Below, one piece after another: positions 29,708 to 38,493 of a stretch of 40,953 nucleotides of DNA. This DNA is from a virus (taxonomy: Duplodnaviria > Heunggongvirae > Uroviricota > Caudoviricetes): positions 1 through 40,953 of IMG/VR virus record IMGVR_UViG_2703718856_000008; one strand, 5' to 3'. The notes under the pieces were generated by a model. The model searched no databases and had not been told where the DNA came from. It saw only the letters and a program-made list of their open reading frames with translations. The position numbers and the translations under genes were made by a program. Numbering within the stretch: the stretch's first letter is position 1; each line of letters opens with the position of its first letter.

Positions 29708-30550
29708 TCACTCCTGCGCCCATGAAGGCATTTCAGTTTGCCCGTAATCTTTGGCGGCAAAGTTTTCCTGCATAGCTCGCTGCTGCGGCCTCGGTTGAGA
29801 TTTCCCCTTTGGAGTCTTGGGCTCAAAAATCCCCTGCCAACCACTGGCGATGCTCTGGTTTATAATTTCTTCAGGTGTATATCCCTTCTCCAGACTTCTG
29901 CTTAGAACGTTGATAGCCTGAGTAACACTTTGCTTAGACTTGATCGACTTACCTATCTCCTTGCGATATGTAACCCACGACAACCATGTTTCTGCTGATA
30001 ACCAATCAGGCAACTCTGTTTCTAGCGGGTCGAACTTCTGAGAAACTTTTTTGGGGGATATAGGGGGTTTATTAATATTTTCTTTTGTCTTTAAAGAATG
30101 TCTTTTGTGTGTCTCTAACTTCGAGACATTGAGTGTCTCTAATTTGGAGACATTTTTTGTCTCTAACTTCGAGACAAAGTTGCTAACTTGGAGACACTTG
30201 CTGAATTGCCACGCAGATACCTCAATGTTTACACCGATTTGATTTCCATCCATAAACAGGCAATTCATTGAAATCAGTTCTTTTTTAGCCTTGTTAACAT
30301 TCTGCCTTGACAGTCCTGTTAACTGAGCAATTTGCTCATCGGCTATTCGATCTGTTTTCTTATTGAATCCATATGTTTTCCGGACGTAGGCCAGCATAAC
30401 TTTCAACTGGCGAGCGGTTAAATCGGCACTTGCGATAGCTTCCAGCAGCTCGTTAGCGAATCTGGTGTAACCATCATCGATATCAGCCACTCTTCGCTCC
30501 TGTTCAACAGGTTCACTCTTCGGCAGGTAAAATACTTCAGCAAGGCTCAT
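29708..30550 (-). CDS. O: Replication initiator O (lambda O-like; iterons inside the gene)
   Basis: Start taken at the ATG at 30550 (GGAGG RBS); conserved N-terminal block ERRVADIDDGYTRFANELLEA as in lambda O; ORF extends to 30583 (TTG). Confidence 0.85.
   Translation of the reverse strand: MSLAEVFYLPKSEPVEQERRVADIDDGYTRFANELLEAIASADLTARQLKVMLAYVRKTYGFNKKTDRIADEQIAQLTGLSRQNVNKAKKELISMNCLFMDGNQIGVNIEVSAWQFSKCLQVSNFVSKLETKNVSKLETLNVSKLETHKRHSLKTKENINKPPISPKKVSQKFDPLETELPDWLSAETWLSWVTYRKEIGKSIKSKQSVTQAINVLSRSLEKGYTPEEIINQSIASGWQGIFEPKTPKGKSQPRPQQRAMQENFAAKDYGQTEMPSWAQE
30111..30195. repeat. Origin of replication: four iterons inside the O gene, followed in the direction of O transcription by an AT-rich segment (30061-30105)
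   Basis: Direct repeats of the dyad GTCTC-N7-GAGAC at 30111-30127, 30135-30151, 30159-30175 and a degenerate copy ending at 30195, spaced 24 bp apart; lambda-ori-like layout. Confidence 0.75.
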
Positions 30551-31181
30551 TTCCAACCTCCGCATCAAAGCATTGGGCTTCAAGAGACTTAACCATCACC
30601 ACACTGCCATCTGTATTAATAACTATCGATGAGTTATATTTGCTTATCAGTTGCTTCGCGTAATCAATTCCGGCGCGAATAAGGAAATTTTTCACCGCAG
30701 GAAGATGACCAACTACACTACCCAGACCTTGCTCTATAAGCTCCTCATTAAGATCAAGCTCATTTTCATGGCGAAAAGAAATGAATGAGTCGTAAATTGC
30801 GTATTCTGCCGTCTCGCCATTTCTTTCAGGGCCAACCAGCGCCCTTATTTCATTTAGAGATTCAGAAAGATCATTATCTTCAAGCTTGAAAAACTCTCGA
30901 TTATCACTAAGCCTCTCTTTTGCAAAGGCTTTATGAATGAGTTTTTCATCTGATGCGGGATTATTTGAATGAAAGGCTGCTATCACCTTAAATGGCTTAG
31001 GAACGCCAGTAGAGGCTGAAATTTCTTTAGCCCTAACTTCTGGTGAATGCTTAGTCATCCCAATCTTATAAATTCCTGGCATGCACTCATTCGAAAGCAC
31101 ATAAACAAAGCCATTTGATTTAAAATCATCTGGCACCTTCATGCTCTTCAGAACCTGGAATTTGTCATTTTCGTATGTCAT
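30537..31181 (-). CDS. T5orf172 (GIY-YIG-like) domain protein with uncharacterised C-terminal domain
   Basis: 214 aa; NGFVYVLSNECMPGIYKIGMTKHSPEVRAKEIS...GVPKPFKVIAAFHSNNPASDEKLIHKAFAKERL..REFF matches the T5orf172/MUG113 signature; inserted between cII and O. Confidence 0.6.
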   Translation of the reverse strand: MTYENDKFQVLKSMKVPDDFKSNGFVYVLSNECMPGIYKIGMTKHSPEVRAKEISASTGVPKPFKVIAAFHSNNPASDEKLIHKAFAKERLSDNREFFKLEDNDLSESLNEIRALVGPERNGETAEYAIYDSFISFRHENELDLNEELIEQGLGSVVGHLPAVKNFLIRAGIDYAKQLISKYNSSIVINTDGSVVMVKSLEAQCFDAEVGNEPC

Positions 31182-31189
31182 AATTACTC

Positions 31190-31258
31190 CTGTGGATTGA
31201 TCCAGTCTTTCTACATCAGGCCTCGAAGAATTCGCCGTTCTTCGGGGCTTTTTCTTTT
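31190..31258 (+). ncRNA. oop: OOP-like antisense RNA overlapping the 3' end of cII (candidate)
   Basis: Plus-strand hairpin CGAAGAA-TTCGCCG-TTCTTCG followed by GGGCTTTTTCTTTT at 31224-31258, antisense to the cII 3' end as for lambda oop; the 5' end is not defined. Confidence 0.45.
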
Positions 31259-31494
31259 GTCAGCATTCTGGCTACTTTCTTAGCCAGTTCCGCCAACTCC
31301 TCGTCTTCAACACCCCATTCAAGAACAGCCAGAAGCATTCCCATTTTGGGGATGAAGCTGTCTTTCCATCGCGAAATTTGCGATTCATTAATCCCTAACG
31401 CGTCGGCAACCTTTCGCTGACCACGTACAGCAATTCGATTCAGGATGTTGCTTGTAATTGCATTCGCTTTCTTGCGAGTACTTGTAAGTTGCAT
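31216..31494 (-). CDS. cII: Transcriptional activator CII
   Basis: 92 aa from the ATG at 31494; ESQISRWKDSFIPKMGMLLAVLEWGVEDEELAELAKKVARMLT closely resembles lambda CII. Confidence 0.8.
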   Translation of the reverse strand: MQLTSTRKKANAITSNILNRIAVRGQRKVADALGINESQISRWKDSFIPKMGMLLAVLEWGVEDEELAELAKKVARMLTKEKAPKNGEFFEA

Positions 31495-31573
31495 ATGTAA
31501 GTATTTCCTTAGATAACAATTGATTGAATGTATGCAAATAAATGCATACACCATAGGTGTGGTTTAATTTGAT

Positions 31574-31605
31574 GCCCTTTTTCAGGGCTGGGATGTGTAA
31601 GAGCG
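31574..31605 (-). promoter_or_regulatory. nutR (N-utilisation site: boxA CGCTCTTACACA plus boxB hairpin GCCCTGAAAAAGGGC)
   Basis: Minus-strand sequence CGCTCTTACACATCCCAGCCCTGAAAAAGGGCATCAAATTAAACC between cro and cII; matches the lambda nutR consensus as recalled. Confidence 0.8.
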
Positions 31606-31613
31606 GGAATGTC

Positions 31614-31829
31614 TTAAGCGGCTTTGTGTTCCGGCGGGAACACGTCATCAAGACTGACTTTTGCGCCTAACTTGTTTAGGCACTCAACAAGAGCACGGCA
31701 TGTTTTAAGGTCTGGGAAGCGACGACCAGATTCCCAATGTCCGATAGCTCCCTGTGTGCATCCAACTGCCTTAGCAAGTGTTGTTTGAGAGATATTCAGT
31801 GACTCTCGATATTTTCGTAGGTTGCTCAT
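31614..31829 (-). CDS. cro: Cro-like HTH repressor (XRE family)
   Basis: 71 aa from the ATG at 31829 (GGAGGG RBS): MSNLRKYRESLNISQTTLAKAVGCTQGAIGHWESGRRFPDLKTCRALVECLNKLGAKVSLDDVF...; divergent from cI. Confidence 0.75.
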   Translation of the reverse strand: MSNLRKYRESLNISQTTLAKAVGCTQGAIGHWESGRRFPDLKTCRALVECLNKLGAKVSLDDVFPPEHKAA

Positions 31830-31940
31830 ATGCCCTCCATAGTAACCATGAAACAATAATACGATATGTACTTTTAGAATGCAAACAAAAAATACATCTT
31901 GTGCATGGATGGTTTTAGTACAGAGCGTAATAATAAGGGT
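31830..31940. promoter_or_regulatory. OR region: divergent PR/PRM promoters and operators between cro and cI
   Basis: 111-bp AT-rich intergenic region between divergent cro and cI; TAATAAT -10-like element ends about 7 nt before the cI ATG, suggesting a leaderless PRM transcript as in lambda; operators not resolved. Confidence 0.5.
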
Positions 31941-32600
31941 ATGAAAATGAAATGGTATGAACTGGCTAGATCCAGAATGAAAGAGCTCGGCATAACTCAA
32001 GAGAAGTTAGCTGAAGAGCTTGGTATGACGCAGGGTGGAATTGGTCACTGGTTGCGCGGATCTCGTCATCCATCTCTTGACGAGATTGGTGTGGTGTTTA
32101 AATACCTTGGTATTGATAACGTCTCATTCAACCACGACGGTACATTTTCACCTGTTGGCGAATACTCATCTGCCCCCGTTAAAAAACAATATGAGTACCC
32201 TGTTTTTTCTCATGTTCAGGCCGGGATGTTCTCGCCTGAGCTTAGAACCTTTACCAAAGGTGATGCGGAGAGATGGGTCAGCACAACCAAAAAAGCCAGT
32301 GATTGTGCGTTCTGGCTTGAAGTTGAAGGTAATTCCATGACCGCACCAACAGGATCCAAGCCAAGCTTTCCTGACGGGATGTTAATTCTCGTTGACCCTG
32401 AGCAGGCTGTTGAGCCAGGTGATTTCTGCATAGCCAGACTTGGTGGTGACGAGTTTACCTTCAAGAAACTGATCAGGGATAGCGGTCAGGTGTTCCTACA
32501 ACCACTAAACCCGCAATATCCAATGATCCCATGCAATGATAGCTGTTCCGTTGTAGGGAAAGTTATCGCCAGCCAGTGGCCAGAAGAGACGTTTGGGTGA
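31941..32600 (+). CDS. cI: CI prophage repressor, chimeric: non-lambda XRE HTH N-terminal domain fused to a lambda-type C-terminal dimerisation/autocleavage domain
   Basis: C-terminal 130 aa ([73 protein letters not shown]...[10 protein letters not shown]) recalled as near-identical to lambda CI; N-terminal 90 aa differ; alternative start ATG at 31947. Confidence 0.9.
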
Positions 32601-32625
32601 TAGGAATGGATGTTAAGGATTAAGA

Positions 32626-33672
32626 ATGTCAGCGATTGATCAACCTGCGCAATATGTTATCAAGTCAGAAGACGACTTTGTATCTTTTGTAACAGAAATG
32701 CTCGGAAGGAAGGACATCGACTCAAGCGACTTCACATTCCCTAACGTAGTTTTCAGTGGATGGCCAAAGATCAATATTAATGTAAAAGGCGATCCAAATA
32801 GATATAATTCTTCATTGACTGCGTCAATGCTTTTTGGTATGGCAGAGCTTACGCATGAAATACAAAAAGCATTTACGGTAGTCAGTCACAGCACTCATAA
32901 TCGGCAGAAGCTAAAAGATGCAGAGAAAGGTTTGCTGGATATTGTCTACCGAATAAGCGAAGGCTCAAGCCAAGCGGATGGTGACTCAGATCCGATTGTA
33001 AACGGAGTGGTGACAGTGTTTACTCAAGCGATAGGCAAAATGACAGGAAGGCAAGCACTATGCGCCGTCGCCGCTATCGTCTTAGCTGCCAGCACGGTAG
33101 GCTATAAGTGGATCAATGAGTACTACGAAACACAGCGACATGACCAAGATTCTCAGGTGCAATTGGTGGAAAAAAGCACCAAAGCGGTAAACGAAGCACA
33201 AGACAATGTGCTCAAGTTGTTGATTAGCGGTCAAACAAACATTAGCAGAGAGGTTCTGGCTCACGGCGAGGATGGTAAAAGCAAGTTGCTTAAAAAGCTT
33301 GCTCAAGACTCGTCAGTTGAGAGGGTAACAATTGGTCAGAGAGTGGTAAATAGAGAACAGTTGAATACCTTAAACCAAAGACAATCAATTGATCGAAAAA
33401 AGGAAACTAGAAGAGATAACTTTTATGTCACGGGCGTTCGTCGCTCGGGAGAAACAAATCAGGACATAAATATTGACGTCATAAGGGTTTCAAATGGTGA
33501 ATCTTTCACCATAAAAACCTCAGCCGACATAACATCTACTGATGAGCTTCTTGAGTTTTTGAATGCTGTAGCCAAAGAGTCAACTGTTGAAATTTCATAC
33601 CTAGAGGTTGTAGAAAATGGGCACATTTCAACAGGGCAATTGATAAATATATTCCCCAGCGAACCAGAGTGA
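32626..33672 (+). CDS. Uncharacterised 348-aa protein with a central hydrophobic segment, co-transcribed with cI (rexAB position)
   Basis: RBS AAGGA 7 nt upstream; begins 25 nt after cI; followed by an intrinsic terminator; no domain recognised; hydrophobic stretch ALCAVAAIVLAASTVGY around residue 150. Confidence 0.6.
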   Translation: MSAIDQPAQYVIKSEDDFVSFVTEMLGRKDIDSSDFTFPNVVFSGWPKININVKGDPNRYNSSLTASMLFGMAELTHEIQKAFTVVSHSTHNRQKLKDAEKGLLDIVYRISEGSSQADGDSDPIVNGVVTVFTQAIGKMTGRQALCAVAAIVLAASTVGYKWINEYYETQRHDQDSQVQLVEKSTKAVNEAQDNVLKLLISGQTNISREVLAHGEDGKSKLLKKLAQDSSVERVTIGQRVVNREQLNTLNQRQSIDRKKETRRDNFYVTGVRRSGETNQDINIDVIRVSNGESFTIKTSADITSTDELLEFLNAVAKESTVEISYLEVVENGHISTGQLINIFPSEPE

Positions 33673-33683
33673 TGCACTCCAAA

Positions 33684-33712
33684 CCCGGCCTCAGCGCCGG
33701 GTTTTCTTTTTC
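33684..33712 (+). terminator. Intrinsic terminator ending the cI operon (timm-like)
   Basis: Hairpin CCCGGC-CTCAGC-GCCGGG followed by TTTTCTTTTTCC, 12 nt after the stop of the 348-aa gene. Confidence 0.7.
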
Positions 33713-33776
33713 CAAAATATAAACCCATTAAATACAAAGCGTTATAAAAAACTAATTATATTTAGAACATTTTGTA

Positions 33777-33805
33777 TTGACTCGATAAAGTACAAATCGT
33801 ACTAT
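33777..33805 (+). promoter_or_regulatory. pL-like early leftward promoter
   Basis: TTGACT (-35), 17-nt spacer, TACTAT (-10), about 45 nt upstream of nutL and 270 nt upstream of N; flanking TTTGTA/TACAAA inverted repeats could be OL operators. Confidence 0.45.
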
Positions 33806-33845
33806 TTAGCCATCAGCAGGACGCACTGACCACCATTGAAGGTGA

Positions 33846-33876
33846 GGCTCTTAAAAATTTAGCCCTGAAGAAGGGC
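33846..33876 (+). promoter_or_regulatory. nutL (boxA GCTCTTAAAAA plus boxB hairpin GCCCTGAAGAAGGGC)
   Basis: Sequence GGCTCTTAAAAATTTAGCCCTGAAGAAGGGCAGCATTCAAAGCAGAAGGCTTTGGG matches lambda nutL as recalled. Confidence 0.8.
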
Positions 33877-34074
33877 AGCATTCAAAGCAGAAGGCTTTGG
33901 GATTGGATGAATGAGCAGGCTGATGCTCGACCAATGTATAAACAGCGCTCATGGCAAGCAGTAACCAATCTGCGCCTCAAGACAGCGTCACTGGTAGTGC
34001 GGGCGCTCTAACCAGTAAGCCGGGGTTCAGCGCCGGCCATCCAATCACCAAAGCTAACTGACAGGAGAATCCAG

Positions 34075-34401
34075 ATGGATGCACAAACACGCCGCCGCGA
34101 ACGTCGCGCAGAGAAACAGGCTCAATGGAAAGCAGCAAATCCCCTGTTGGTTGGGGTAAGCGCAAAACCAGTTAACCGCCCTATTCTCTCGCTGAATCGC
34201 AAACCGAAATCACGAGTAGAAAGCGCACTGAATCCGATAGACCTTACAGTGCTGGCTGAATACCACGAACAGATTGAAAGCAACCTGCAACGTATTGAGC
34301 GCAAGAATCATCGAGTTTGGTATAGCAAGCCACGCAGTGAAATGGGTGTGACTTGTGTTGGTCGCCAGAAAATGAAATTAGGCAGCAAACCACTTATTTG
34401 A
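34075..34401 (+). CDS. N: Antiterminator N
   Basis: 108 aa MDAQTRRRERRAEKQAQWKAANPLLVGVSAKPVNRPILSLNRKPKSRVESALNPIDLTVLAEYH... (arginine-rich boxB-binding motif), recalled as near-identical to lambda N. Confidence 0.95.
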   Translation: MDAQTRRRERRAEKQAQWKAANPLLVGVSAKPVNRPILSLNRKPKSRVESALNPIDLTVLAEYHEQIESNLQRIERKNHRVWYSKPRSEMGVTCVGRQKMKLGSKPLI

Positions 34402-38022: not shown

Positions 38023-38319
38023 ATGCCAGCGCCTCTGTATTGTGCGGATGACGCGCGCCGCTGTTCCGGCAATTCCGTATCGGAGGTGCTGGATAAATTC
38101 AGGAAAAACTACGACCGGATAATGTCGCTACCGCAGGAAACGAAAGAGGAAAAGGAGTTTCGCCACTGCATATGGCTTGCAGAGAAAGAAGAACGCGAGC
38201 GAATTTACCAGACATCAATCCGACCATTCCGCAAAGCCACATATACCCACTTCCCTGAATATATCGACCCGCGCCTGCGTAATTACCGCTCACGCTATGG
38301 CGCTATCAGTAATGACTGA
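38023..38319 (+). CDS. Hypothetical 98-aa protein
   Basis: ORF with GGAG upstream; Cys-containing N-terminus, basic. Confidence 0.4.
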
Positions 38320-38493
38320 GGAATTTACCATGAGAGGACTTGCATACAATCCCAGCATTCTTCCGGCAGAAATGATTATTCGCCAACGCGTAAAGCCAAT
38401 GCCATCGAGAGAGGAATTGCTTAAGAGAAATTCTTTTCCGTCAGTGAATCAAAACAAATATCTGAATGCGATGTGGCGCAAAGGAGGCAACCA

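Follow-up and report, generated by a model that had tools for sequence, protein, structure and literature searches.

The cI gene of a P22-like mosaic phage and its probable place in the VT2-Sakai immunity group

How did a phage repressor that is almost identical to lambda CI along its C-terminal part come to carry a very different N-terminal HTH domain, and is this combination peculiar to the phage in which it was found? The question is raised by the cI gene (31941..32600, + strand) of a viral sequence of 40,953 nucleotides that was analyzed along its whole length and is called here the window. The initial annotation of this locus described a chimera. It claimed a lambda-type C-terminal part, a heterologous N-terminal HTH, a recombination joint inside cI, a non-lambda Cro sharing a recognition motif with CI, non-lambda operators, and lambda-type N, nutL and nutR. 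The whole was read as a swap of the immunity specificity module inside an otherwise lambda-like control circuit, and it was proposed to locate the joint by alignment to lambda and to search the OR and OL regions for operators. Our analysis indicates that cI, cro and the operators very probably make up the immunity region that is standard in VT2-Sakai and the Stx1-converting phages, present here on a P22-like mosaic E. coli phage.

We have analyzed the repressor by domains. The translated ORF has 219 aa from the ATG at 31941 and 217 aa from the ATG at 31947, the latter being the form annotated in phage 1717. Pfam detects an HTH_3 domain (residues 11-58, E 8.3e-11) and a Peptidase_S24 domain (E 8.9e-29). 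In BLASTP, residues Y84-G219 align to residues 102-237 of lambda CI with 134/136 identities, and the similarity N-terminal of Y84 is weak. Domain-wise global alignment gave the same picture, with ~20% identity for residues 1-83 and 99% for the C-terminal part. At the nucleotide level, the segment coding for the autocleavage and oligomerisation module (32190..32600, +; cleavage-site region plus S24 core, equivalent to lambda CI mature residues 101-236) is 93.9% identical to lambda, and the segment coding for the VT2-Sakai-type HTH DNA-binding part (31941..32189, +) has no DNA similarity to it. The Ala-Gly site (A94-G95) and Ser132 (within GNSM) are identical to the aligned lambda residues, and so is the FKKL motif (174-177), whose lambda counterpart contains the catalytic Lys. 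The near-identity to lambda claimed for this part, Ala-Gly and Ser/Lys regions included, was thus borne out. The C-terminal part also matches residues 101-236 of PDB 3bdn and residues 1-136 of 8gmu; lambda residues 101-236 are the fragment used in crystallography of the self-cleaving module. CI has the sequence features of LexA/lambda-CI-type S24 repressors, namely an HTH domain, the S24 dyad motifs and a preceding Ala-Gly site, and is a two-domain, LexA-like repressor. As for the N-terminal HTH, it is indeed different as far as identity is concerned (~20% to lambda), but the term heterologous goes too far. The domain gave weak matches to the structures of the lambda repressor N-terminal domain and, judged by sequence, belongs to the lambda-repressor-like HTH superfamily as a diverged member, so that its fold is not foreign.

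The cro gene (31614..31829, - strand) codes for a 71 aa protein of the HTH_3 type (Pfam HTH_3, E 1.5e-12). An alignment to lambda Cro was sought and none was obtained, in agreement with the description of this Cro as non-lambda. It is identical to the Cro of phage 1717 at 70/71 positions, and the PDB chains of the P22 C2 N-terminal domain match it weakly (E ~6e-3). The identity between the N-terminal domain of CI and Cro is 35% (E 8e-13), and the two have in common the motif G-x-T-Q-G-x-I-G-H-W-x-x-G-x-R-x-P, so the shared recognition motif that had been pointed out (GxxQGxIGHW..G.R.P) is present. The situation resembles that of 434 and P22, in which repressor and Cro are likewise related HTH_3 domains with similar recognition helices acting on one operator set. 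The sequence similarity to 434 and P22 is weak (the C-terminal domain of P22 C2 is 47% identical to that of the window CI), and the operator sequences of these two phages differ from those of the window.

The OR region spans ~31830-31940, beginning just after the end of cro at 31829. We assigned to it three putative 17-bp operators, OR1 (31857-31873, TAATACGATATGTACTT), OR2 (31890-31906, AAATACATCTTGTGCAT) and OR3 (31916-31932, TAGTACAGAGCGTAATA), and another three to OL, OL3 (33730-33746, AAATACAAAGCGTTATA), OL2 (33763-33779, TAGAACATTTTGTATTG) and OL1 (33788-33804, AAGTACAAATCGTACTA). The assignment was based on conservation, dyad symmetry and the annotation of the Stx1-converting phage AP005153, in which three 17-bp sites in OR and three in OL are listed as putative operators. 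All six of these are conserved in place in the window, and the spacers between them diverge. OR1, with an exact TACN5GTA core, coincides with a putative operator of AP005153, OR2, OR3, OL3 and OL2 align with others, and OL1 has the best dyad. The half-site consensus is W-A-R-T-A-C-R, in which A5 and C6 are invariant and positions 2, 5 and 6 as a set almost so. The exact TACN5GTA sequence is found six times along the 41-kb window, three of them in OR or OL. When OR and OL were scanned for strict 5+5 dyads, OL1 alone was recovered; since the operators are imperfect dyads, the assignment rested on conservation against the AP005153 annotation. A position-weight scan, which ranks the six sites at the top of the window, was rejected as evidence because it is circular, the matrix having been trained on the same six sites. 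The OR spacers are 75-81% identical to those of the Stx phages, compared with 93-100% for the operators and the flanking genes, a pattern that fits constraint on the sites themselves. No lambda match was found by blastn across OR (31830-31940) or OL (33710-33810). The proposed operator search therefore gave three predicted sites in each region, and their non-lambda character was confirmed.

The putative operators overlap the candidate promoters. A consensus scan located a PR candidate for cro (31856..31885, - strand; TTTGCA, 18-nt spacer, TATTAT) at the position of the PR annotated in AP005153, with OR1 over its -10 and spacer. In the same way, a PL candidate was found at 33777-33805 (+ strand; TTGACT, 17-nt spacer, TACTAT), with OL2 over the -35 and OL1 over the spacer and -10. 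For PRM, the hexamer AATAAT at 31929-31934 (+ strand), read from the sequence, is the probable -10 and overlaps OR3. This hexamer is found 7 nt upstream of the ATG at 31941. PRM would then start near this ATG, with the centre of OR2 at about -43, i.e. ~43 bp upstream of the cI start, much as in lambda (42 bp). This suggests that the cI mRNA from PRM is leaderless, as in lambda, and the ATG at 31947, with a better Shine-Dalgarno spacing, could serve PRE transcripts. The centre-to-centre spacing of the operators is 33/26 bp in OR and 33/25 bp in OL, whereas the lambda values are 24/23 and 24/20. As these spacings are unlike those of lambda despite a cooperativity domain that is 98.5% identical, the lambda scheme of cooperative pairing is not simply transferable. 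The short, lambda-like spacing corresponds to OR2-OR3 at OR but to OL1-OL2 at OL, and cooperative pairing may differ between both regions.

From these data we infer the DNA-binding specificity, the cooperativity, the RecA-mediated cleavage and the promoter assignments in the following terms. The CI HTH and the related HTH of Cro would read the six 17-bp dyad operators through the half-site described above, OR1-3 being located between cI and cro and OL1-3 upstream of N, over PR, PRM and PL. CI dimers on OR and OL would act as repressors of PR and PL, and PRM would probably be autoregulated. The lambda-type C-terminal module would provide dimerisation, cooperative binding and, together with activated RecA, self-cleavage at the Ala-Gly site leading to prophage induction, the RecA-stimulated cleavage being expected because 134 of its 136 residues are those of the lambda module that performs it. 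CII would drive a PRE-like promoter and N would act on the lambda-type nut sites.

We have also examined the genes at both sides of the immunity block. Downstream of cI the order is a 348-aa ORF, a terminator hairpin, OL/PL, nutL and N; downstream of cro it is nutR/tR1 and cII. The N antiterminator (34075..34401, + strand; Pfam N36, E 1.8e-26) has 89% identity to its lambda counterpart and no differences from it up to residue 63. The nutR/tR1 segment (31492..31607, - strand) is 99% identical to lambda 38247-38362 by blastn, with boxB GCCCTGAAAAAGGGC at 31574-31588, and the nutL segment (33811..33901, + strand) is 96.7% identical to lambda, with boxB GCCCTGAAGAAGGGC at 33862-33876. The lambda-type character attributed to N, nutL and nutR is therefore correct, with an N that has the lambda arginine-rich N-terminus and boxB hairpins in both nut sites. 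The boxA of nutL (33847-33854) reads GGCTCTTA, one base away from the lambda sequence, CGCTCTTA.

Other parts of the region are less close to lambda. The cII gene (31216..31494, - strand) codes for a 92 aa protein (Pfam Phage_CII, E 1.8e-42) with 53% identity to its lambda counterpart. A PRE-like box TTGCN6TTGT is found at 31472-31485 (+ strand), 13 nt upstream of AAGTAT, a spacing read from the sequence. In the position of rexAB there is instead the gene for the 348-aa protein (32626..33672, + strand), followed by the lambda-like terminator hairpin at 33681-33704. This protein had no match in Pfam or PADLOC, and its AlphaFold2 model, of moderate quality, contains just a generic C-terminal OB fold. 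DNA matching lambda amounts to ~4.7 kb of the window and corresponds to the lysis genes, part of the nin region, the C-terminal part of cI, N and ral. Positions 1-24000 are P22-like virion DNA (portal, coat, DNA-transfer proteins and tailspike), and this P22-like virion half is ~95% identical to phiv205-1, IME10 and APC_JM3.2. To describe the background as an otherwise lambda-like control circuit was thus an overstatement, given a CII of 53% identity, the replaced rexAB, ~4.7 kb of lambda DNA and the P22-like virion genes. The lambda-type pieces lie around the immunity block as in a typical lambdoid patchwork. Phage phi458 has 31492-33899 in common with the window at 99.3% identity and little else.

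In order to establish whether the combination found in CI belongs to this genome or to a group, we compared the immunity block with the databases. A tblastn search with the N-terminal 83 residues of CI retrieved 59 phage records at 95-99% identity, many of them of Stx1- or Stx2-converting phages. The Stx1-converting phage AP005153, phage 1717, the PA-series phages and others have 96.4% identity over residues 1-83; the set also includes PA-series Stx2a phages, 2B8 and the PhiR phages, and four records reach at least 99%, among them phi458 and vB_EcoP-720R6. The whole CI is 97% identical to those of AP005153 and of the Stx2 phage 1717 (NC_011357), and the C-terminal part of VT2-Sakai CI is 97.1% identical to that of the window. 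The DNA from cro through OR to cI (31614-32598) gives a single continuous match of 93.6% to AP005153 and phage 1717. At a threshold of at least 80% coverage, this block was detected in 776 of the 5,426 complete E. coli genomes, about one in seven, and the 90%-identity protein cluster that contains the window CI has 1,686 member sequences. The locus therefore has what defines the VT2-Sakai type (CI DNA-binding domain 96.4% identical, Cro 70/71, six operators aligned) and lacks what would define imm lambda, its N-terminal domain being 20% identical, its Cro unaligned and its OR and OL without a lambda blastn match. A distinct, undescribed immunity type was ruled out by the near-identical CI, Cro and operators that tblastn and megablast found in many phages.

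There are previous reports of this type of repressor. Fattah et al. [quoted passage not shown] The binding of lambda CI to VT2-Sa operators was measured as micromolar (PMC10742460). In epsilon34, the C-terminal domain is ~80% identical to lambda/HK97 and the N-terminal domain ~50% to L, VT2-Sa and Nil2 (PMC2629481), and predicted OR1-3 and OL1-3 were identified in the genomes of the PST1 (Sakai-type) and PST3 clusters (PMC4587872). The repressor type with a lambda-like C-terminus is thus already known, having been described in 2000, and is common to all members of the immunity group.

The joint inside cI was located by the proposed alignment to lambda. The sliding DNA identity jumps from 0.3-0.45 to 0.97 at base 32190, where the lambda match begins (TATGAGTACCC...). 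The joint is therefore at 32189/32190, in the interdomain linker and at lambda mature residue 101, and the switch takes place within a few bases. The identity profile of the Stx1-converting phage against lambda has the joint at the identical position. Since the same architecture and the same joint are found in this phage and its relatives, the chimera characterizes the immunity group as a whole and is not peculiar to this genome. The N-terminal domain belongs to an immunity type already known and has the C-terminal partner usual for it and, at the same time, an abrupt change in identity is seen at 32190; the first observation goes against the initial reading and the second one agrees with it.

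The nucleotide change ratios indicate that the joint is a true product of recombination. Along the C-terminal 136 codons there are 22 nucleotide differences with lambda and 2 amino acid changes (dN 0.006, dS 0.27), and in the N-terminal part dN is 0.92 and dS is saturated. A dS of 0.27 in one half and a saturated value in the other imply greatly different coalescence times, so recombination is required, and the joint inside cI that had been proposed is supported. When cI was compared to that of the Salmonella phage g341c, dS was 1.6 for the N-terminal part and saturated for the C-terminal part. Both halves are old with respect to g341c, hence the combination of the two, an N-terminal domain of the window type and a C-terminal one of the lambda class, is ancient. 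The near-identity of the C-terminal part to lambda is the result of homologous recombination among E. coli lambdoid phages, and a joint located in the interdomain linker leaves a self-contained functional unit on either side. A second breakpoint, near 32420-32495 within the C-terminal coding part (maximum chi-square, p = 0.003), indicates another exchange; between 32237 and ~32453 the informative sites follow lambda, and from ~32496 on they follow the Stx1-converting phage. The C-terminal part of the window cI is nearer to lambda (dS 0.27) than to its own immunity group (dS 0.37).

We surveyed the pairing of domains in 120 database CI homologues. Window-type N-terminal domains (43-87% identity) are paired with C-terminal domains of 76-86% identity; for the C-terminal domains of the lambda-type 237-aa proteins the range is 82-87%, and for those of a third N-terminal class (212-215 aa) it is 79-89%. 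In a neighbour-joining tree of the C-terminal domain, a short domain analyzed without bootstrap, the three N-terminal classes are thoroughly interleaved. Domains have thus been exchanged repeatedly across this boundary, and because of the interleaving the attempt to read the direction of exchange from the tree was rejected. The reading of a standard VT2-Sakai-type region leaves the direction open, and is as such compatible with a reversed one, in which the lambda-class C-terminal domain would be native to the Sakai/epsilon34 lineage and would have been acquired by the lambda-immunity phages. This is possible, though we lean against it. It would agree with the finding that in Citrobacter, Salmonella, Enterobacter and Kluyvera the window-type N-terminal domains come with a C-terminal domain of the lambda class, and with the graded co-divergence of both domains that the survey ranges reflect. 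However, the lambda-type N-terminal domains are paired with C-terminal domains just as similar in several genera, and the tree nests neither class in the other.

Much less probable is the interpretation of the initial annotation, i.e. that the specificity module (N-terminal domain, cro and operators) was swapped on a single occasion within a lambda genome or control circuit, generating a hybrid new in this phage. It would account for the sharp joint at 32190 and for the lambda-type N, nutL, nutR and terminator after the gene in the rex slot. Against it, the architecture and joint recur in the Stx1-converting phage, in 1717 and in hundreds of E. coli prophages, and the 6-7% nucleotide divergence of the other carriers makes their descent from this genome implausible. 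Besides, the ancient pairing of the two domains indicated by g341c and the limited extent of the lambda likeness around the locus (CII, rexAB, ~4.7 kb, virion genes) speak against such a swap. A swap peculiar to this genome is thus contradicted by a unit of known type found in 776/5,426 E. coli genomes. Least of all could the N-terminal domain simply have diverged fast under selection for a new specificity with purifying selection holding the C-terminal domain, since, even if C-terminal domains are the more conserved ones family-wide (55% against ~80% in the comparison with g341c), constraint alone as the cause of the boundary is ruled out by the split in dN/dS, with a C-terminal dS of just 0.27 facing a saturated N-terminal part devoid of detectable DNA similarity, by a transition within few bases and by the interleaving of N-terminal classes on the C-terminal tree.

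Placed in the VT2-Sakai group, the window can be compared to the known systems in some detail. VT2-Sakai (Sp5), AP005153, 1717 and the PA-series PST1 phages have the same two-domain CI, the same Cro, the six operators in the same order and the same joint. In the N-terminal domain, three residues differ from the Stx-phage CI, none of them in the recognition helix (D47, E48 and V61 here, S, D and I there), and the few operator positions that differ are mostly central. N and nut are of the lambda type here, whereas N is annotated as HK97/Nil2-like in the Stx phages, and the gene downstream of cI is another one. Lambda CI, as well as those of HK97 and the wild lambda-immunity phages HK544/HK106/mEp234, is 98.5% identical to the window CI over residues 101-236, with the cleavage-site region, the S24 Ser/Lys core and the dimer and cooperativity surfaces conserved. 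The divergent orientation of cI and cro and the tripartite OR and OL are also as in lambda; the differences are the N-terminal domain, the sequence and spacing of the operators, the HTH_3 Cro and the replacement of rexAB. The C1 repressors of the Salmonella phages epsilon34 and g341c combine the same N-terminal class with a lambda-class C-terminal domain, and the operator core proposed there, WTACRAWWTGTAT, resembles the half-sites of the window. However, their host is Salmonella, and the deep divergence of the two domains predicts another specificity for these repressors.

A module boundary that coincides with a protein-domain boundary is textbook lambdoid mosaicism, and carries little weight as a discovery. 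The annotation has practical value. A phage with VT2-Sakai-type immunity is expected to be homoimmune with a prophage group that is very common in E. coli and includes Stx phages, and this one should be SOS-inducible through its lambda-type cleavage module. The window CI and lambda CI might in addition form mixed dimers or cooperative assemblies in cells carrying both prophages, giving cross-talk, because the dimerisation and cooperativity module of the two repressors is 98.5% identical. We consider this rather unlikely. If true, mixed assembly could lead to partial cross-immunity, as has been reported for VT2-Sa and lambda, dominant-negative destabilisation or synchronised induction, and would be either a selective reason for the repeated exchange of C-terminal domains or a consequence of it.

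At the other end of the region, between cII and the O-like replication gene, we found a gene for a T5orf172 / MUG113 (GIY-YIG-like) protein of 214 aa (30537-31181, - strand). In PADLOC it hits PDC-S57, a candidate defence family (E 6e-29), and a part of PD-Lambda-1.
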